This document shows, in pieces, positions 9,742-54,508 of a stretch of 64,000 nt of DNA. The translations under genes and the position numbers were made by a program. The notes beneath the pieces were generated by a model. The model saw only the letters and a list, made by a program, of their open reading frames with translations, did not search any database and was not told the DNA's origin. Position 1 is the stretch's first letter. Every line of letters starts with the position of its first letter. Source of the stretch: a virus; IMG/VR virus record IMGVR_UViG_3300025102_000018, positions 9,885 through 73,884 of that record. The stretch is one strand, 5' to 3'.

Positions 9742-10128
9742 ATGCCAACTAACGATTATTGGGACAATATGTTTAGACCAGAAATGTCACGAACCACTAC
9801 ACAAGGTAACCAGTTTGGTAGTTCACCAAGTGCTACAAAAATAAGTTACGTAGAAAAATGGGCCTACCCAGACGAACAATATCCTAAATTTAAAGATACT
9901 TCAGCTCAATCGACTTATCAATTTGGTCGTTACCTTAACGAATATTATAATGCATATATTCCAGCTAGTTATATGTCATCGGTATCAGCCGGAGACGACC
10001 AACCTAGTAGAGTATTTTTCTTTCAGTTCGTAGATGATACTACATCCATACCTTCTAACTCAGTAGGGTTTCATTTTCCAGGTAGGACCAGTCTAAGCTA
10101 TGACATAACTAATCACAAATACATTTAA
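9742..10128 (+). CDS. Hypothetical protein in the structural cluster
   Basis: 128-aa ORF, co-oriented and tightly packed with its neighbours. Confidence 0.6.
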   Translation: MPTNDYWDNMFRPEMSRTTTQGNQFGSSPSATKISYVEKWAYPDEQYPKFKDTSAQSTYQFGRYLNEYYNAYIPASYMSSVSAGDDQPSRVFFFQFVDDTTSIPSNSVGFHFPGRTSLSYDITNHKYI

Positions 10129-38871: not shown

Positions 38872-39210
38872 ATGGCAAAAGATAATTCAGCAACAAAATT
38901 AGCAGCAAACCAACTACTGTTGGAAAAATACGAACCAATTTTGGTTATTAAAATAATGAGAATTCCTCCTGTAGAGGAATTACAAGCTTTTACAAAAAAA
39001 ATTCAGACGGATTTTGGGTATAATACGTTAGTATTACCAGGAGAGTTAGATACCTCTGTAGAAATTTTAAGTGTTTGTGATGTTGAAGTCACAGATTTAG
39101 AAAAACTACAAAAAATGGTTTATGATAATATTAAATTATTAGAAGAGGATGGGGCAGAAGAAGTGACGTTTAAAACAGCAAAAGAAATAAGGGATGAAAA
39201 AAAGGACTAA
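38872..39210 (+). CDS. Hypothetical protein
   Basis: 112-aa ORF. Confidence 0.6.
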   Translation: MAKDNSATKLAANQLLLEKYEPILVIKIMRIPPVEELQAFTKKIQTDFGYNTLVLPGELDTSVEILSVCDVEVTDLEKLQKMVYDNIKLLEEDGAEEVTFKTAKEIRDEKKD

Positions 39211-46633: not shown

Positions 46634-47677
46634 ATGAAAATAAAACTTGAGTACATTTGGTTAGATGGGTATAAACCCGAACCACACCTACGTAGTAAAA
46701 CTAAAGTTATTAACTTAGAAATGCAAGACCCGAAGGAAAGAATACTTCCTCAGATAAGACCTGAAGATTGTCCCATTTGGTCATTTGATGGTAGTTCTAC
46801 AAAACAAGCGGAAGGAAATAATTCAGATTGTTTATTAAAACCAGTTAAAACATTAATTGACCCACAAAGACCTAATTCTTATTTGGTGTTATGTGAAGTT
46901 TTAAATTCAGATGAAAGACCCCATTCTACTAATACTAGAAACAAATTAAAAGATGAAAATAAAGACGAGTGGTTTGGTTTCGAACAAGAGTATGTCATTA
47001 TGAAGAACGGTAAACCAATTGGATTCCCTAAAGCTGGTTATCCAGACCCACAAGGTAGGTATTACTGTGGTGTAGGTACCGGTACAGTGGATGGTAGAAA
47101 AATCGCTGAGGAACACCTTGATGTTTGTTTAATGGCGGGATTAGAAATTACAGGTATTAACGCTGAGGTTATGTTAGGACAATGGGAATACCAAGTATTT
47201 GGACAAGGAGCGAAACAAGCTTCTGATGATTTATGGTTATCTAGATTTTTATTAAATAGAATTGGTGAATTTCATGGATATGAAATAAACTACCACCCTA
47301 AACCAGTAGATGGTGATTGGAATGGTTCAGGAATGCATGTTAATTTTTCCACAAAAGACATGAGAGAAAATGGTGGTAAAGAACTAATAGAATCTATTTG
47401 TGATACATTTGGATTTTATCATGAAGAACATATTAATGTTTATGGTTCAGAAAACGAAAAAAGACTTACAGGTTTACATGAAACACAAAACATTCAAAAA
47501 TATAGTTACGGGGTATCAGATAGAGGAGCAAGTATTCGTATCCCTGTGTCTACGGTCAAAAACAATTGGAAGGGATATCTTGAAGACAGAAGACCGGCTT
47601 CAAATGCAGACCCTTATAAATTAACCCGTAGAATATTAAAAACATTAGAATATTCTACACAAAATGAAACAGTATAA
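46634..47677 (+). CDS. glnII: Glutamine synthetase type II
   Basis: LEYIWLDG, LRSKT, WSFDGSST.QA.G..SD, WFGFEQEY, GINAEVM.GQWEYQ, HPKP..GDWNGSGMH, RLTGLHET, RGASIRIP and GYLEDRRPASNADPY. Confidence 0.95.
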   Translation: MKIKLEYIWLDGYKPEPHLRSKTKVINLEMQDPKERILPQIRPEDCPIWSFDGSSTKQAEGNNSDCLLKPVKTLIDPQRPNSYLVLCEVLNSDERPHSTNTRNKLKDENKDEWFGFEQEYVIMKNGKPIGFPKAGYPDPQGRYYCGVGTGTVDGRKIAEEHLDVCLMAGLEITGINAEVMLGQWEYQVFGQGAKQASDDLWLSRFLLNRIGEFHGYEINYHPKPVDGDWNGSGMHVNFSTKDMRENGGKELIESICDTFGFYHEEHINVYGSENEKRLTGLHETQNIQKYSYGVSDRGASIRIPVSTVKNNWKGYLEDRRPASNADPYKLTRRILKTLEYSTQNETV

Positions 47678-47678
47678 T

Positions 47679-47897
47679 ATGGATATTAAATTAGAAGCAT
47701 TAAAAAAAAGATATGAGGCGGATATTCTAGAATCCAAAGCAACTCTAGAGGTTTACTTAAATAACGCAGCTGGTATCGGTGAACACCCTCAAATAATTGA
47801 GGAAATGGATAAATTATTTTGTAAACTTGCTGACGCTGAAGGTAAATTAGAATCTTTAAATGGATTTGAATTAAAAGAAAACCAGGACTATAAGTAA
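47679..47897 (+). CDS. Conserved phage hypothetical protein
   Basis: YL.NAAGIGEHPQIIEE motif. Confidence 0.65.
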   Translation: MDIKLEALKKRYEADILESKATLEVYLNNAAGIGEHPQIIEEMDKLFCKLADAEGKLESLNGFELKENQDYK

Positions 47898-47902
47898 TTT
47901 TT

Positions 47903-48271
47903 ATGAAAACAATAATTTGTGATATAGATGGTACTTTAGTTACTTACAAAAAAGATACTCTAGGGATAGTAAAAACCCCCCATGATGTGTTACCTGGTGT
48001 AATAGAACATATGAATAGATGGGAAAATGAGGGGTGTAAGATAATTCTTATGACTGGAAGAAGAGAAAATCTTAGAAAAATAACCGAAGAAGAAATCACT
48101 AAATTAGGAATCCCTTTCGACCAACTAATTATGGGATGTGCAGACTCAGGTAGGGTTTTAATAAATGATGAAGGAAGTAAAGTAAAAGCACATTCCGTTT
48201 CTTTACCTAGAGATAAAGGATTTAAAGATTATGATTGGAGAGAAGTTGGACTTACAAAATTAAAATTATGA
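47903..48271 (+). CDS. HAD-superfamily phosphatase
   Basis: ICDIDGTL, LMTGR and LIND motifs. Confidence 0.8.
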   Translation: MKTIICDIDGTLVTYKKDTLGIVKTPHDVLPGVIEHMNRWENEGCKIILMTGRRENLRKITEEEITKLGIPFDQLIMGCADSGRVLINDEGSKVKAHSVSLPRDKGFKDYDWREVGLTKLKL

Positions 48272-48477
48272 CAGAAAAAGAATTTGTATATTGGTTAAGA
48301 GGGATAGTGGACTCAACAGAGTTTATGCCTACTAAAAAAACTTGGGATACTATTCAGGATAAGTTAAAAGAAGTGGAATCTAGTGATGAAGGTTCGTATA
48401 GGCAACCACCTTATGTGGTAATAAACCCTTACAAACCATCTGACACACCAGGTACACCACCACAAATCTTGTGTTAA
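48268..48477 (+). CDS. Hypothetical protein
   Basis: MTEKEFVYWLRG N-terminal pattern typical of small phage proteins. Confidence 0.6.
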   Translation: MTEKEFVYWLRGIVDSTEFMPTKKTWDTIQDKLKEVESSDEGSYRQPPYVVINPYKPSDTPGTPPQILC

Positions 48478-48489
48478 ATAAAAAATTTG

Positions 48490-48497
48490 TATATTTG
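48490..48497 (+). promoter_or_regulatory. Bacteroidota-type -7 element TATATTTG driving the tRNA pair
   Basis: Lies 4 nt upstream of the tRNA-Arg 5' end. Confidence 0.6.
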
Positions 48498-48501
48498 TCC
48501 T

Positions 48502-48575
48502 GGACCAGTAGCTCAGCTGGATAGAGCATCAGCCTTCTAAGCTGACGGTCGAAGGTTCGAATCCTTCCTGGTTCA
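48502..48575 (+). tRNA. tRNA-Arg(TCT)
   Basis: Acceptor GGACCAG/CTGGTTC, D-arm GCTC/GAGC, anticodon arm TCAGC-CTTCTAA-GCTGA and T-arm GAAGG-TTCGAAT-CCTTC. No encoded CCA. Confidence 0.95.
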
Positions 48576-48591
48576 CTAAAAATAAAAATAT

Positions 48592-48666
48592 GCGGGTGTA
48601 GCTTAATTAGTTAAAGTGACCTACATTCCAGTAGGTAGACGGTGGTTCGTAATCCACCCACCCGCT
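48592..48666 (+). tRNA. Non-canonical tRNA-Gly(TCC)-like RNA
   Basis: Acceptor GCGGGTG/CACCCGC with U73. Anticodon arm ACCTAC-ATTCCA-GTAGGT (6- or 8-nt loop). T-arm GGTGG-TTCGTAAT-CCACC (8-nt loop). The D-loop lacks GG. Confidence 0.7.
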
Positions 48667-48682
48667 CTAATACTTAAAAATT

Positions 48683-48943
48683 ATGGGAAGAGTAAAAACA
48701 CATGGAAAAGTAGAAAGACAAAAATCTGCTACAGAAAGACAAAAACTATATGATTCATTAACAATTCAGGAAAAACTAGACAAGTTACCTCCAGAAGGAG
48801 CAAAAAAGCAAAGAGTAAAGTTAGAGTACCAGTTAAAGTTTGGAAGAAAAACTAATGAAGCATCAACTCCATCGGCCACAAAAAAACGAAAAGACGCAAA
48901 ACCATCGCGAAAAGAAAGATGGGAGACTCGTCAAAAAAATTAG
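48683..48943 (+). CDS. Hypothetical basic protein
   Basis: 86-aa K/R-rich ORF. Confidence 0.6.
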   Translation: MGRVKTHGKVERQKSATERQKLYDSLTIQEKLDKLPPEGAKKQRVKLEYQLKFGRKTNEASTPSATKKRKDAKPSRKERWETRQKN

Positions 48944-49013
48944 GGATAGGGGCTTGACAGGTGTAGTTTTTTATGTACTATTATATATCGTTTAACATTT
49001 AAAAATATTAATC

Positions 49014-50447
49014 ATGAACTTAATTGACGCTTTACAAATAAAAGATGCTGTGACAGAAAACGGAATGTCAACCAATTCGTCCCCACTGAATCAGTGTGTT
49101 AATCTATTCTTCCAAATCGGAGCGATGAGGGGAGTAGATAAAAAAAGGTTATTTACCAAAGTTTCTAAAGCGTTCAATGAAGACCCTCTCACAACAATAA
49201 AAATTATATTTTGGGCACGTGATGTCCGTGGTGGAGCTGGTGAGAGACAAATCTTCAGAGATTGTTTATCATGGTTATGTGACAACCATAAAGAAGTTCT
49301 ACATAATAATATTCACCTAATTAGTGAATATGGTAGATGGGATGATGTGCTTACGTTGGTAGGTACTCAAAATTGTTGGGATTCCGCGTTAGATATAGTT
49401 AAAACTGCTTTAGATAATAAAGATAGTTTATGTGCTAAATGGATGCCAAGAAAAGGACCAAAAGCGAATATTATTCGTAGGTACCTTAAGTTATCCCCAA
49501 AACAATACCGTAAGTTATTAGTGGGACTTACTAATGTGGTTGAAACCAAGATGTGTGCAAAGGACTGGAAAAGTATCGATTATTCGAAACTTCCATCCTT
49601 GGCCTCGTCGAGGTACCAAAAAACTTTCATGAAAAATGATGAAAGTAGATATGAAACGTACAAACAAGCATTAGTTGATGGTGAAACAAAAATTAATGCA
49701 GCAGCGGTATACCCTTACGATATTATAAAATCTATTAGTCATGGTGGTGAAAAAGTTGTTGCACAGGCACAATGGGACTCACTTCCAAATTATATGGAAG
49801 GAATTAGTCAAAGGGTGTTACCTGTAGTTGATGTATCAGGTTCAATGACCACTCCAGCAGGGAATAACGGTAACGTTACCTGTATGGATGTATCAACATC
49901 ATTGGGCATGTATATCTCAGAGAGAAATGAAGGTGTCTTCAAAAACGCATTCATAACATTCTCTTCTAAACCACAACTACAATTACTTGAAGGTTCTTTA
50001 ACCGATAGGTTAATCCAACTGGAGAGAGCAGACTGGGGAATGAATACTGATTTACAAGCAACGTTTAAGTTAATCTTGGACCAAGCAGTAAAACATAATG
50101 TTCCAGTATCCGAGATGCCAACCAAAGTTCTTATCCTTTCGGATATGGAGTTTGATTCAGCAATCAGTGGAAACTGGGATAGTGTAACAGACTGGAACCC
50201 AACTGCACAAGAAATGATTAAAGGGATGTATGAGGAAGCTGGTTACGAAATGCCAGGGATTGTTTATTGGAATATCCAAAGCAGACAAGACAATGTACCA
50301 ACTCGTTTCGATGAGATGGGAACGGCATTAGTATCCGGGTTCTCACCCTCAATCATGAAAAGTATCTTAAGTTGTCAGGATATGACACCTTATAATATGA
50401 TGATGGAGACTATCGGGTCCGCTCGATATGAACCAATTACGGTCTGA
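49014..50447 (+). CDS. DUF2828 family protein (helical domain + vWA/MIDAS; Ro60/TROVE-like architecture)
   Basis: TENG, FWARDVRGGAGER, EYGRWDD, AKWMPR, VVETKMC, vWA MIDAS VVDVSGSM, WGMNTD, LSDMEFD, YWNI and VSGFSP. Confidence 0.85.
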   Translation: MNLIDALQIKDAVTENGMSTNSSPLNQCVNLFFQIGAMRGVDKKRLFTKVSKAFNEDPLTTIKIIFWARDVRGGAGERQIFRDCLSWLCDNHKEVLHNNIHLISEYGRWDDVLTLVGTQNCWDSALDIVKTALDNKDSLCAKWMPRKGPKANIIRRYLKLSPKQYRKLLVGLTNVVETKMCAKDWKSIDYSKLPSLASSRYQKTFMKNDESRYETYKQALVDGETKINAAAVYPYDIIKSISHGGEKVVAQAQWDSLPNYMEGISQRVLPVVDVSGSMTTPAGNNGNVTCMDVSTSLGMYISERNEGVFKNAFITFSSKPQLQLLEGSLTDRLIQLERADWGMNTDLQATFKLILDQAVKHNVPVSEMPTKVLILSDMEFDSAISGNWDSVTDWNPTAQEMIKGMYEEAGYEMPGIVYWNIQSRQDNVPTRFDEMGTALVSGFSPSIMKSILSCQDMTPYNMMMETIGSARYEPITV

Positions 50448-50448
50448 C

Positions 50449-50598
50449 GGGTAGACCAAAGAATCTCTTCGGCAACTTAAAACAAAACCAAGAGAGAGAG
50501 GTGGATATTGTTCCCCACCTTGTTGAATAAATAAATTAGGGACATTTAGTCTCCGAAATCCTAAATAAAAAAGATTTTACAAATGATTCTGACTACCC
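50449..50598 (+). ncRNA. Candidate structured ncRNA, unit 1
   Basis: Closing helices GGGTAG/CTACCC and AGAATC/GATTCT, CGGCAA after the 5' helix, an AAACAAAACC tract, and internal hairpins AGGTGG/CCACCT and TTAGG/CCTAA. Confidence 0.6.
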
Positions 50599-50640
50599 AT
50601 AAGACTAGACTTTACTTCGCCCACCGGCGATTTACATATG

Positions 50641-50699
50641 AAAGGAAGGCTACAGCAATCTTAATTGTAACCAAAATCAAACAAAAACCCCCTTCCTGA
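50641..50699 (+). ncRNA. Candidate structured ncRNA, unit 2
   Basis: AAAG start, helix AGGAAGG/CCTTCCT, CAGCAA after the 5' helix, an AAACAAAAACC tract, and a CTGA end as in unit 1. Confidence 0.6.
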
Positions 50700-50700
50700 G

Positions 50701-50732
50701 ACCCCCTAACTGAGAAGTTTGGGGGTTTTTTA
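50701..50732 (+). terminator. Rho-independent terminator
   Basis: ACCCCC-TAACT-GAGA-AGTTT-GGGGGT hairpin followed by a T-run. Confidence 0.85.
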
Positions 50733-50808
50733 TTGATAATACTGTTTTTTTATAGTATTTTTGTATAGAAATGAAAAGTAGAAGTATATTTATAATAAAA
50801 TAATTTTT

Positions 50809-51063
50809 ATGGCACGATTAACCAACGAACAGATACATAGTGAGATTAAACTAGTAAAAAAAGATGTAGTTTATCTTAAAGAAGGACAAGTTAAGATGCA
50901 AGAAGACCTTACTATGATTAAAAAAGTATTATTAGACCCTGATAAGGGTGCTATCGCGAGAGTTAATCGTAATACAGATTTTAGAAAAAAAGCAAATGCC
51001 GCATTATGGTCCGTTTGGATAGCTTTAATAGGTGTAATTGCTAAATTAATATTTTGGGATTAA
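50809..51063 (+). CDS. Small coiled-coil protein with a C-terminal TM helix (holin/XhlA-like?)
   Basis: Heptads followed by a hydrophobic C-terminus. ATATTTAT at 50786..50793. Confidence 0.5.
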   Translation: MARLTNEQIHSEIKLVKKDVVYLKEGQVKMQEDLTMIKKVLLDPDKGAIARVNRNTDFRKKANAALWSVWIALIGVIAKLIFWD

Positions 51064-51102
51064 AGTTTAATATGTCGAAAGACAATCAAACACCTTTAAA
51101 TT

Positions 51103-51324
51103 ATGACAACGAAACAAGTAGTTTCTAACTTACAAGGCAAGATTCAAAAAATTAAGAAAGAACTCGAGATAATCCAAGATAATTGTAAACACCCTACTAC
51201 TATTGCTAAGTTTGATAAGAAAAATTCTGTACGTTTATTTTGTGTAGAATGTGATAAAGAAGTCGGAATGCCTTCAGAAACACAACTAAAAGAATTTTTA
51301 AATACTGGAAAAGAAAAAAATTAA
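51103..51324 (+). CDS. Hypothetical protein with a possible Zn-binding motif
   Basis: CKH...CVEC. Confidence 0.6.
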   Translation: MTTKQVVSNLQGKIQKIKKELEIIQDNCKHPTTIAKFDKKNSVRLFCVECDKEVGMPSETQLKEFLNTGKEKN

Positions 51325-51389
51325 ATGGAAAAAATTGTTGATAAACTAAATGAATTATGGGATGATTTCATAGATTGGGTAACAGAGTT

Positions 51390-51677
51390 ATGGGATTAAA
51401 ATATAAAAATAAATATTTTCGAGAAGTTTTAGAGAGGGATTTAAAAGAACAAGGCTTGGGTGTTAATATCCATTGTAAAGAAGATGCCATCTATTTCACG
51501 ATACCTCCCTATCCAGACACCGCCAATAAATTTCCCCGTATTTACCACAACTGGAAAACAAAATCTCTAGTCACAAAAATAAAAAAATTAGTAAATAATT
51601 ATAACATCGATGTAACCCCTAATGAAACTATTTATAAGGATAACAGAAAAATAAAATTAAAAATAAATGAAGAATAA
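51390..51677 (+). CDS. Hypothetical protein
   Basis: ORF of about 95 aa. Confidence 0.5.
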   Translation: MGLKYKNKYFREVLERDLKEQGLGVNIHCKEDAIYFTIPPYPDTANKFPRIYHNWKTKSLVTKIKKLVNNYNIDVTPNETIYKDNRKIKLKINEE

Positions 51678-51879
51678 ATATGATTTATGGATTTATCTTA
51701 GTATATTCTCAATATTCTTTTTAATTTTTATGAGTATAGGTTGGGTCGCATCTTCATTAATGTGGTTAATTACTGGGGACATGATTAGTAGAACAGACTT
51801 TTTTCTACTAACTCTATCAATCAACATTTTATTTTTTTTATTTATCATCGTTAACACTCTACTACAAAAAAAATCCTAA
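51667..51879 (+). CDS. Small membrane protein
   Basis: Two hydrophobic helices. Confidence 0.55.
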   Translation: MKNKYDLWIYLSIFSIFFLIFMSIGWVASSLMWLITGDMISRTDFFLLTLSINILFFLFIIVNTLLQKKS

Positions 51880-51884
51880 AAAAG

Positions 51885-51915
51885 TTTGTAATTCCAATTT
51901 ACTTTATTATATTTG
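51885..51915 (+). promoter_or_regulatory. Bacteroidota-type promoter (TTTG-N19-TATATTTG)
   Basis: Matches the -33/-7 consensus upstream of the DUF932 gene. Confidence 0.7.
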
Positions 51916-51949
51916 TACTATAGAAATTTAATAATTAAAAAAGACAAAC

Positions 51950-52729
51950 ATGAGTACATTAGTAAAACCCCTAACACAAGCAGAATTACAAGAAAAAGCC
52001 CCTTCTATTTACACAACACAACCTTCTTATAAAGTATCGGATAAATACAGTTTTATACCTACTACTACAATTCTAGAAGACCTAGATAAACTAGGTTGGC
52101 AACCATATCAAGCAATGCAAAGAAAATCTAGAGCAGAACAAGATATGTTATTCACTAAACATATGATACGATTAAGAAACAATAGTATAGGACAACTAGG
52201 TGACTCTATCCCAGAAATAATTCTTACTAATTCTCATGATGGAAGAAACTCGTTTAACCTTCACGCAGGACTATTCAGACTTGTATGTTCAAATGGACTA
52301 GTAATAGCAGATACTACATTTGACGAGGTAAAAATTAAACACCAATGGTATAGCATGGATGAGATAGAAAAAGTAATCAACACTATGGTGGGTAATATCC
52401 CTTCTATCGTAACTAATGTCAACAGAATGGACCAAACTGAATTAACAGATTCACAACAAATAGAGTTTGGTAAAAAAGCTATGTTAACTAGATGGGCCAA
52501 GGGTAATGAAGCTTTAGATATTGATGATTTAGTACAAGCAAATAGAGTTGCGGATAGAGGGAATTCGGTATGGAAAGTTTATAATGTAGTACAAGAAAAA
52601 CTAGTTAAAGGTGGTCTAGTCTTTAACAACGACAAAGAAAAAATGCAAAAACTAAGACCTATTGTTAACATCGACCAACAAATTAAGATTAATCAAAATC
52701 TTTGGTCTTTAGCCGAGTCTTACATTTAA
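51950..52729 (+). CDS. DUF932/DUF945 family protein
   Basis: APSI, S.KYSFIPT, KHMIRLR, PEIILTNSHDG..SF...AGLFRLVCSNGL and W..YNVVQE. Confidence 0.9.
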   Translation: MSTLVKPLTQAELQEKAPSIYTTQPSYKVSDKYSFIPTTTILEDLDKLGWQPYQAMQRKSRAEQDMLFTKHMIRLRNNSIGQLGDSIPEIILTNSHDGRNSFNLHAGLFRLVCSNGLVIADTTFDEVKIKHQWYSMDEIEKVINTMVGNIPSIVTNVNRMDQTELTDSQQIEFGKKAMLTRWAKGNEALDIDDLVQANRVADRGNSVWKVYNVVQEKLVKGGLVFNNDKEKMQKLRPIVNIDQQIKINQNLWSLAESYI

Positions 52730-52741
52730 TTAATCATTAAT

Positions 52742-52765
52742 AAAGAGGGGTTATCCCCTCTTTTT
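52742..52765 (+). terminator. Rho-independent terminator
   Basis: AAAGAGGGG-TTAT-CCCCTCTTT hairpin followed by T residues. Confidence 0.8.
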
Positions 52766-52771
52766 ATACCT

Positions 52772-54508
52772 ATGGAAAAAATTATAGCAAAATATAAATT
52801 TGAGTTTTTTGCTGTGGACACTTATAAAAATTATAATAGATGGCCAAGGGAAGAACAAAGAACCATACAAGATTTTTTACCCAAAGAAGGTAGAGAAGAA
52901 ACTTCATGGTTTAATATGTCACCTCGTTGGGAAGAACCAGAAGGAAAGCTTTTTACATTAGACAAAAGACAAGGTTATGTTAGTGAAGAATATTGGAAAA
53001 AACAATCTTTTAATTTACTAGTACACGCCTTGGTGAGGAGAGTGACTATAGTGTTAAGTAAGAATGAAAAAAAGAATCAGATTAAACTATCGGTTTTTGG
53101 TTTTATGAAAGGTAAAAAAACTGGTAAAAAATATTATTGGAAAACATCGGATAATATTCACCTTTCATTTAATACAAAAATTAATGATTTTTTTGTTATA
53201 ACACAAACAAAAAGAGGGGTTAGATGGAATAATAGTATTACAAGAAATAATTTTAAGGGAATAACTAAACAACTACTTACCCTTCCAGGGATTATAGAAG
53301 GACTATTACTAGTTGATGATAGGGAAAAGTTTGAAGAATATAGAGAAGATATAGGAAATGCATGGCAAGACATTCTAATTAAATTACAAGAAGAATTATG
53401 CATCCCTAACGAATGGGTAAAAACCAAGTTTCCAACTAATATCACCAGACATATAGTATTTCCCTGGTTTTTATCAAAAAAACAGATAAAGTTACCTAAT
53501 AACTGGAGAGAGTTAATACAAAACCATTATCCAGGTATAAGAAAACTTAGGAAATACAAAATGAATTTAGGGAAAGCAATATTACACCATAGAGAAGTGT
53601 ATTCTAAGTATAGTAATAAACTTTTGAATACTATGAAAGATTTTAATATATGGACCTATAAAATATTTTTTGATACTTTTGGAAGACATGGCATTAAAAA
53701 ACTTTCTGTATCTTTATTTGAAAAAGAAGAAAGTTACATTAACATGTCCGAAGGTATAATCAACAAACTAACACCATTAGAAAAAGATAATCTTATTAGT
53801 TTGTTTAATAAAACATTAACAGAGGACCTTCAGTTTAATGATATCAATGACCATGTAAATCTTAAAGAAAGACTTTCTCACAAGGGAATAAAAGTAAAAT
53901 TAAATTCTACAAACCAAGAAGAATTTGATAGAGAACATTTAGATTGGTCAACTCAACTGGCGGAAGTACAACGCACTAAAGAGATTACCTATACATATAA
54001 TCCTTTGTTTATTGAAGAAGTAGAAAAACCCATAAAATGTAACGGAAGTATCTATAAACCCTATATTCTAAAAACGGATATAGACTATAATGAAGAAGGG
54101 ACTTATCAGAGACACTGTGTTGGTTCCTATATTGATAGGTATACTTCTGACCTTATTTCAGTGAGGAAAAATAATGGAAAAAGAATTACTCTAGAATATA
54201 AAATTAACCCTTTATCTAAAGAAGCTTTTTGTGTACAGTCACGACTTAAATTTAACGGTCGACCTGATAAAGAATGGAAAGAAGTGATGGGTATTTTACA
54301 TATGATAATAACTAAATTAGTTAAAGAAAGATTATATATTAATCCAGAGATAAAAATTAAAAACCTAAGGACACAAAAAATAAAAATAGTTAACAAAGAT
54401 GACACCCAAGTAAATAATGATTATATTGTAAATAATGAATGGGAATTAGAACCTTTAAGAAACGAGGTAATGGAACCAATGGGTGAATTTGATGATTTAC
54501 CCTTTTAA
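52772..54508 (+). CDS. PcfJ-like domain protein
   Basis: C-terminal EEG..QRHCVGSY...RITLEY...Q.R..FN pattern. Confidence 0.7.
   Translation: MEKIIAKYKFEFFAVDTYKNYNRWPREEQRTIQDFLPKEGREETSWFNMSPRWEEPEGKLFTLDKRQGYVSEEYWKKQSFNLLVHALVRRVTIVLSKNEKKNQIKLSVFGFMKGKKTGKKYYWKTSDNIHLSFNTKINDFFVITQTKRGVRWNNSITRNNFKGITKQLLTLPGIIEGLLLVDDREKFEEYREDIGNAWQDILIKLQEELCIPNEWVKTKFPTNITRHIVFPWFLSKKQIKLPNNWRELIQNHYPGIRKLRKYKMNLGKAILHHREVYSKYSNKLLNTMKDFNIWTYKIFFDTFGRHGIKKLSVSLFEKEESYINMSEGIINKLTPLEKDNLISLFNKTLTEDLQFNDINDHVNLKERLSHKGIKVKLNSTNQEEFDREHLDWSTQLAEVQRTKEITYTYNPLFIEEVEKPIKCNGSIYKPYILKTDIDYNEEGTYQRHCVGSYIDRYTSDLISVRKNNGKRITLEYKINPLSKEAFCVQSRLKFNGRPDKEWKEVMGILHMIITKLVKERLYINPEIKIKNLRTQKIKIVNKDDTQVNNDYIVNNEWELEPLRNEVMEPMGEFDDLPF

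Follow-up and report, generated by a model that had tools for sequence, protein, structure and literature searches.

We report on a locus in a 64-kb stretch of viral DNA (64,000 nucleotides (nt), hereafter the window; positions 9,885 to 73,884 of the IMG/VR record IMGVR_UViG_3300025102_000018) in which a gene encoding a 477-residue protein with DUF2828 and DUF7788 domains is followed directly by two small structured RNA units. The comparisons described below revealed a covarying RNA family lying outside Rfam, with a nearly invariant single-stranded core, and its linkage to the DUF2828 gene across unrelated phages is very tight and strand-specific. The second of the two units in the window is assigned to this family by two independently built models, and the protein is predicted to resemble Ro60 over its full length. 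The explanation that best accounts for these observations, which we hold with moderate confidence, is that of one transcription unit encoding a Ro60-fold protein together with its partner RNAs, which would assemble into a ribonucleoprotein (RNP) of the Y-RNA type. The window covers part of a 73.9-kb viral contig with an estimated completeness of ~23%, and its DNA is contained in marine metagenomes.

We refer informally to these RNAs as handle RNAs. Each comprises a 7-base-pair (bp) stem with a semi-conserved base, two unpaired nt, a single-stranded ACAGCAA, a variable loop or insert, the 3' strand of the stem and an invariant G. All of these features are present in unit 2, which runs from the 5' strand AGGAAGG (50643-50649) through CU, the core ACAGCAA (50652-50658) and a 32-nt A-rich loop to the 3' strand CCUUCCU (50691-50697) and the G at 50698. 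The same signature recurs, with quite different stem sequences, in the flanks of homologous genes on viral contigs, where 31 homologues with proteins of 25-89% identity were examined (L001 and similar numbers below are labels for homologue loci). A loose scan admitting any stem with a degenerate core proved useless, since it returned 34 matches in the window against 46-52 in shuffled sequence, that is, fewer; because of this uninformative outcome, strict patterns and covariance models were used instead. With the strict pattern, the viral flanks yielded 35 candidates on the strand of the gene as against 6 on the other. The first covariance model (R1) was seeded with ten units selected for pairing, and the second (R2) was built solely from units at loci on bacterial and archaeal contigs, unrelated to the window. 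Unit 2 is the sole significant R1 match in the window (53.2 bits, E 3e-11), and R2, trained on no relative of the window, detects it as well (29.6 bits, E 4e-5). A further R1 match at 38891-38947 (14.7 bits) falls within an open reading frame (ORF) and was taken as chance.

The pairing could be assessed on a broader sample drawn from cellular assemblies, in which one genome per prokaryotic species was scanned, 310 relatives of the protein were recovered and the best 80 of their loci (537 kb) were searched with R1. This search gave 73 matches in 47 loci, every one of them on the strand of the gene, with 71 lying within ~820 nt upstream of the gene start. Among the 71 distinct units obtained, all 497 of 497 stem cells hold standard pairs in an alignment that was fitted by the model and so leans towards structure; the closing helix, which the initial annotation of the window had described as covariation-like, shows compensatory change at all seven of its positions, and sliding the partners by one to three columns reduces pairing to 32-52%. 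The size of this contrast, together with the bias in strand and position, is independent of the preference for pairing that model fitting introduces. The single-stranded core is nearly invariant over the 73 matches, with A in 71 at position 1, C in all 73 at position 2, A in 72 at position 3, G in 73 at position 4, C in 72 at position 5, A in 73 at position 6, and A in 58 or G in 13 at position 7. The trailing G is present in 73 of 73, and the loop measures 24-88 nt with a median of ~31. Rfam 15 holds no family for these RNAs. At E<=10, a scan of 48000-52000 placed nothing in 50448-50700 except weak matches around the terminator, and the sole YrlA match in the scanned region (19.5 bits, E 1.3) overlaps true tRNAs; scans of four other loci at gathering thresholds returned tRNAs only.

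The occurrence of the motif near other DUF2828 homologues, which the initial annotation had left to be looked for, was borne out: it is found almost always on the strand of the gene and usually within 1 kb. On the viral loci R1 recovered further units beyond its seed, all on the gene strand, and in combination with the strict pattern it identified full-signature gene-strand units beside the DUF2828 gene in seven annotated reference phages (Listeria AG20, Salmonella Si3, which is Felix O1-like, Mycobacterium Kingsolomon, Cronobacter S13, Vibrio nt-1, Campylobacter F374 and Bacillus Skywalker). Whole-genome searches led to the same pattern. Five complete genomes of Listeria, Salmonella, Mycobacterium, Campylobacter and Bacillus phages (580 kb, both strands) contain nine R1 matches at E<=0.1, and all nine lie no more than 700 nt from the DUF2828 gene and on its strand. 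Over five more viral contigs (1.28 Mb), six of the eight matches adjoin the gene, the exceptions being a pair situated ~20 kb from it in a 363-kb phage and one marginal match on the opposite strand (E 0.07). In a close relative of the window (93% complete, 298 kb), the single match genome-wide is the homologue of unit 2 beside the gene. The handle units may stand upstream or downstream, in one to five copies per locus, and some hold structured inserts of 100-250 nt; in Listeria phage AG20, three canonical units lie directly upstream of the DUF2828 gene, behind a TTGACA-17-TATCAT promoter. Additionally, tRNA arrays flank the gene in five of the seven reference phages, and the Listeria phage carries RNA-ligase genes downstream. 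Among the close relatives of the window, both units are kept where the proteins are 72-89% identical, the DNA past the terminator diverging, and unit 2 is present in all six relatives whose contig reaches that far (L001, L002, L003, L004, L005 and L009).

Two side observations concern these loci. In Cronobacter phage S13, over-long annotated tRNAs stand directly downstream of the DUF2828 gene (L037 5857-6249; a tRNA-Ser of 121 nt and a 'tRNA-OTHER' of 113 nt), and after them comes a handle unit whose insert measures 112 nt; the two tRNAs may be interrupted or fused tRNA-like RNAs. Contigs assigned to archaeal bins, from metagenome-assembled genomes of Pacearchaeota (L056) and Promethearchaeota (L083), likewise carry DUF2828 homologues immediately preceded by R1 matches.

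Unit 1 departs from this canonical form. The initial annotation had ascribed the same layout to both units, which holds for their ends; the interior differs, since in unit 1 an A-rich tract directly after the core is followed by ~90 nt with three hairpins before the 3' strand is reached. Its handle consists of AGAAUC(U) at 50460-50466, CU, UCGGCAA at 50469-50475 and (U)GAUUCU at 50584-50590, with the trailing G at 50591, so that six of the seven stem positions are paired and the innermost is a U-U mismatch. The insert between core and 3' strand amounts to 108 nt and contains at least three hairpins. Around the handle, separated from it by a 5-nt/2-nt internal loop, lies a 6-bp outer helix formed by GGGUAG (50449-50454) and CUACCC (50593-50598). 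Unit 1 and unit 2 are identical at 19 of 32 positions in an ungapped comparison. Unit 1 is conserved in L002, L004, L005, L007 and L009, and the arrangement of outer helix, internal loop and handle recurs directly after the gene in L010. Within unit 1, no covariation was detected among close relatives, in which the helices are invariant, in a test alignment incomplete at its 3' end. A tRNA-like nature of the insert was considered and set aside, as it has no match to tRNA or any other Rfam family; one of its hairpins, GGUGG/CCACC, is identical in its stem to the T arm of the odd tRNA-like gene upstream (Table 1), which is possibly coincidental. In the reading that we prefer, unit 1 derives from the handle family as a divergent, extended paralogue, and we treat it as a candidate member only. 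The assertion that the repeated element is an RNA family and not a DNA repeat is sustained for unit 2, by both models, linkage and covariation, and unit 1 is weakly recognised by the models. Compared with typical loci, the window has two units only, both in the 3' untranslated region (UTR), one of them extended and divergent, and no tRNA-like insert was detected in them.

Turning to the protein, the Pfam scan assigned its N-terminal part to DUF2828 (4e-37) and its C-terminal part to DUF7788, a vWA family (5e-51), with further weak matches at E<=1 to VWA_2 (0.13) and vWA_Ro60 (0.16). It belongs to PHROG 850, annotated as "RNA-binding protein", and proteins of the DUF2828 type were found in 711 phage records. 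The MIDAS motif (DxSxS...T...D) that had been noticed in the initial annotation is complete, the residues D273, S275, S277, T345 and D377 being invariant in 21 homologues. An AlphaFold2 model computed from a 21-sequence alignment (mean pLDDT 79, pTM 0.70) was compared with known structures by two methods. With Foldseek against the PDB, the 12 best matches listed were all Ro60 structures (Thermus phage phiLo, Deinococcus Rsr, Xenopus and human), at E of 1e-8 to 5e-5, TM-scores up to 0.57 and alignments of more than 480 columns. VIA-align agreed, its ten best entries all being Ro60 with Z of 18.4-14.1 and ~400 residues aligned in each, led by 9KOP (phiLo Ro60; Z 18.4, 397 residues) and with 1YVP at Z 17.7, as compared with ~11 for chains consisting of a vWA domain alone. 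The predicted architecture is therefore that of a helical-repeat ring closed by a C-terminal vWA domain, Ro60-like over the full length, as the initial annotation had proposed.

These likenesses place the locus beside the Ro60/Rsr proteins and their Y RNAs. The window protein shares with them the predicted helical-repeat ring and a vWA domain with MIDAS; the RNAs share closure by a stem of 5' and 3' strands and a location within ~1 kb on the same strand, with tRNA or RNA-repair neighbours being frequent. The differences are equally clear. By sequence the protein is DUF2828/DUF7788 and is not recognisable as a member of the TROVE family, and the handle RNAs have neither the bulged Ro-binding helix of Y RNA (RF00019) nor the GNCGAA motif and tRNA-like domain of YrlA (RF02553). 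The description of the units as Y-like RNAs accordingly stands as far as the handle layout beside a Ro60-fold gene is concerned, but they are not Y RNAs by Rfam or sequence criteria. The closest phage counterpart is Ro60 of Thermus phage phiLo (PDB 9KOP, 9L5Y), which has been shown to bind two adjacent Yrl RNAs (Yrl1/Yrl2) and the host PNPase (PMC12135203). It matches the model better than any other structure compared and is likewise a phage ring protein with two adjacent small RNAs; it differs in being a recognisable TROVE protein with 15-17% identity to the window protein, and its RNAs bear a CGAA bulge motif and precede the gene. In an earlier survey, limited to TROVE-annotated genomes, bacterial and mycobacteriophage YrlA RNAs with the GNCGAA motif and tRNA-like domain were described (Chen et al. 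2014; PMC4201824), and TROVE proteins have been mentioned in some jumbo phages (Iyer et al. 2021). Our literature search brought up no work dealing with phage DUF2828 or DUF7788, nor with the handle motif, and the DUF2828/handle pair probably represents a relative of the Ro60/Y-RNA particle that has not been described before.

One published system may come near to it. The Listeria phage protein CKA15_055, whose best HHpred match is Rsr, was detected in virions, and its gene lies at most 2 kb downstream of non-coding transcripts of very high abundance; the authors speculate on a Y RNA/Rsr pair, but that paper defines no RNA motif, structure or binding (PMC12282133). In AG20, which belongs to the genus Pecentumvirus (P100 group; CKA15 is P100-like), the DUF2828 gene lies 622 bp downstream of a tRNA cluster and is followed by a helix-turn-helix regulator, and by this gene context CKA15_055 is very probably of the same protein family as the AG20 DUF2828 protein. 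If the coordinates of CKA15 and AG20 match, the region located in CKA15 (26,236-26,727) corresponds to an unannotated stretch other than the handle units; the other two abundant regions of CKA15 might contain counterparts of the AG20 handle units. The AG20 stretch itself, ~650 nt without a handle signature (L034 3368-4025, record ~26141-26798), lies between tRNA-Pro and the next coding sequence and has a TTGACA-17-TATAGT promoter; under the same assumption it would be the most highly transcribed non-coding region of CKA15.

The features of the locus are collected in Table 1. The two units and the strong terminator reported by the initial annotation in an ORF-free stretch after the DUF2828 stop codon were all present, and no ORF of 40 or more amino acids was found within 50448-50700. 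Two shorter frames were rejected as coding, namely a 38-residue ATG ORF at 50583-50699, which is not kept in close relatives (shifted frame in L002, early stop in L004), and an 8-codon micro-ORF at 50638, which is unconserved. This 253-nt stretch is effectively non-coding. The promoter-like site ahead of the gene is likely the start of a transcript that includes gene and RNAs, and an internal candidate at 50372-50401 was discarded because its -35 element is lost in relatives; as no conserved promoter precedes the units, they most likely arise with the transcript of the gene, as its 3' portion. The terminator hairpin is kept in relatives though its stem sequence varies. In the small hairpin between the units, CGCC/GGCG is replaced by GCGG/CCGC in L004 and L005 with pairing retained, a compensatory change; it may act as a weak terminator or serve in RNA processing or stability. 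In four marine metatranscriptome runs, contigs match parts of the DUF2828 coding region (within 49156-50481) or of the genes of relatives at 90-99% identity, so that the gene or near kin of it are represented in marine RNA libraries, with DNA carry-over possible; the contigs cover none of 50500-50750 and, since contigs cannot show absence, are uninformative on expression of the RNAs.

Table 1. Features of the DUF2828/handle RNA locus, in window coordinates (z, folding z-score)
Feature	Position	Strand	Basis and remarks
tRNA-Arg(TCT)	48502..48576	+	ARAGORN; Rfam tRNA 72 bits; upstream neighbour of the DUF2828 gene
Atypical tRNA-like gene	48592..48667	+	ARAGORN 'tRNA-???'; Rfam tRNA 48.5 bits; cloverleaf fold z -5.1
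Sigma-70-like promoter, TTGACA-16-TACTAT	48954..48981	+	Consensus scan, 10/12 matches; consensus match only
DUF2828 + DUF7788 (vWA) gene, 477 amino acids	49014..50447	+	Pfam; PHROG 850; stop codon 50445-50447
Unit 1, extended divergent handle RNA (candidate)	50449..50598	+	Fold; z -2.1; R1 4.6 bits
Small GC hairpin between units, then U/A-rich tail	50617..50630	+	Fold z -3.1
Unit 2, canonical handle RNA	50643..50698	+	R1 53.2 bits; R2 29.6 bits
Intrinsic terminator	50698..50731	+	Fold -18.5 kcal/mol, z -4.4, then UUUUUU

The two tRNA genes are located 350-510 nt upstream of the DUF2828 gene. In the second, the anticodon loop (CAUUCCAG) and the T loop are each 8 nt long, the anticodon is not assignable by ARAGORN, and the product could be a frameshift-type, decoy or degenerate tRNA. 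Further upstream, at 46634-48271 on the same strand, are genes for a glutamine-synthetase-like protein (Gln-synt_N, Gln-synt_C) and for a small polynucleotide kinase-phosphatase (PNKP)-type HAD phosphatase. Downstream, after several small ORFs, a DUF932 protein and then a PcfJ-like protein of 578 amino acids are encoded at 51950-54508 (+). A search of the 74-kb fragment for RtcB and for RNA ligases of family PF09414 gave no match, but the fragment, at ~23% of the genome, is uninformative on this point; a search for PF09511 is void, since it missed all control genomes as well. Among cellular assemblies, the closest relative of the window protein (61% identity) is on contig QCKH01000004.1 (L041) of the single-cell assembly Prochlorococcus sp. 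AG-409-L21; this contig could belong to a phage that had infected the cell or was sorted along with it, and it hints at picocyanobacteria as hosts of the phage group.

Taken together, the proposed transcription unit would extend from the promoter near 48954 through the DUF2828/vWA gene and the two small RNAs to the terminator. The ring protein would bind the handle, that is, the base of the stem, ACAGCAA and the G, similarly to the binding of Ro60 to the conserved Y RNA stem, giving a Y-RNA-like RNP, and the variable loop or insert, left free, might engage another partner or control entry into the ring. We consider it rather likely that the protein and the handle RNAs form a complex. Such a particle might act on the integrity or turnover of RNA or tRNA during infection, possibly by modulating a host exoribonuclease, as does phiLo Ro60-Yrl with PNPase, or through repair or protection of tRNAs; a role centred on the repair or decay of tRNA or RNA is suggested by the tRNA and RNA-repair neighbours and by the activity of Ro60 elsewhere, and we advance it tentatively. 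The repair or decoy role put forward in the initial annotation is drawn from the neighbouring genes. Four findings that would speak against the proposal had been set out in the initial annotation; three of them were checked and none emerged, which supports its overall reading.

Several observations nevertheless weigh against this interpretation. On the side of the protein, TROVE (PF05731) gave no match in the Pfam scan at E<=1, and a profile search against PDB sequences returned no significant match, phiLo Ro60 reaching only E 0.6; homology to Ro60 hence rests on a predicted fold (pLDDT 79, TM ~0.55). On the side of the RNA, the handle has no signature of Y RNA or YrlA and no Rfam match. The covariation counted within the R1 seed is circular, because the seed was chosen for pairing, and the bias of the larger alignment towards structure has been noted above. 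Unit 1 fits the family poorly: R1 places it in the family register, yet at 4.6 bits (E 0.46), R2 does not detect it in the window, its core UCGGCAA departs from ACAGCAA at two nearly invariant positions (1 and 3), and in the close relative L001 its interior is deleted with unit 2 retained. Lastly, the RNAs of the window lie in a 3' UTR and have no promoter of their own, which fits a role in cis too.

This last point leads to the main rival, according to which the units act in cis within the DUF2828 mRNA, providing feedback on its translation or stability through the protein or another factor, with no RNP acting in trans. Co-transcription with the gene is indicated by the start of the units 1 nt past the stop codon and by the lack of conservation of the sole upstream promoter-like site, and 71 of the 73 cellular matches lie within ~800 nt upstream of their genes, where a 5' leader would sit. 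A cis element would not be expected to vary in position between upstream and downstream or in number from one to five per locus, to stand ~20 kb from the gene in the 363-kb phage, or to be served by its own near-consensus promoter as is the three-unit array of AG20, and structured inserts of 100-250 nt would be needless for an operator site. Favoured here by the 3'-UTR position and disfavoured elsewhere, a cis-regulatory role is in our estimation unlikely, though it is the alternative to be taken most seriously.

It is also improbable that the handle RNAs are independent small RNAs, or processing or stability elements of tRNA-region transcripts, which are not bound by the protein and merely share a phage 'RNA module' with DUF2828. 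The frequent position of the gene in or beside tRNA arrays would suit such a module, the A/U-rich loops could base-pair with targets, and the 7-bp stem followed by 2 nt resembles, in a comparison of our own, a tRNA acceptor stem followed by positions 8-9. Against this, the whole-genome matches follow the gene and not tRNA arrays in general (nine of nine, six of eight, and the single match in 298 kb), and a nearly invariant single-stranded ACAGCAA with its G suggests recognition by a protein over variable base-pairing. A chance resemblance or DNA-level repeat devoid of RNA function, for which the presence of two copies only in the window, the poor score of unit 1 and the modest folding z-scores (-1.4 for unit 2, -2.1 for unit 1) could be cited, is exceedingly improbable and is contradicted for unit 2, given strand-specific, gene-linked matches and stem covariation over hundreds of kilobases of unrelated phages and contigs and the retention of the units in relatives whose post-terminator DNA diverges.

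Returning to the interpretation as a Ro60-type particle with its own RNAs, the window adds one more, somewhat unusual example of a Ro60-like protein/RNA pair that has apparently not been described before. As a bolder conjecture, which we regard as possible though less likely than not, DUF2828 and the handle RNAs might represent a second, sequence-divergent branch of Ro60-type RNPs with its own RNA recognition code, far commoner in phages than TROVE Ro60, deployed in the contest between phage and host over tRNA and RNA integrity and in some phages maybe delivered ready-made with the virion. The Ro60/Y-RNA particle is a classic yet poorly understood RNA-surveillance system, and bacterial and phage work on it has been confined to TROVE-annotated proteins. 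If the particle forms, an RNP of the Ro60 type, marked by a simple and well-defined RNA signature, is present in a large and unnoticed set of phages, among them the Listeria P100 group (Pecentumvirus), Felix O1-like phages, T4-like vibriophages, mycobacteriophages and Campylobacter phages, and an RNA of ~55 nt with an invariant 7-nt core offers a direct entry to its biochemistry. If true, the proposal would assign a function to a widespread domain of unknown function, and the roles of Ro60-like rings in infection, whether in the control of RNA decay or in the repair or protection of tRNAs, would become testable in tractable phage-host pairs.

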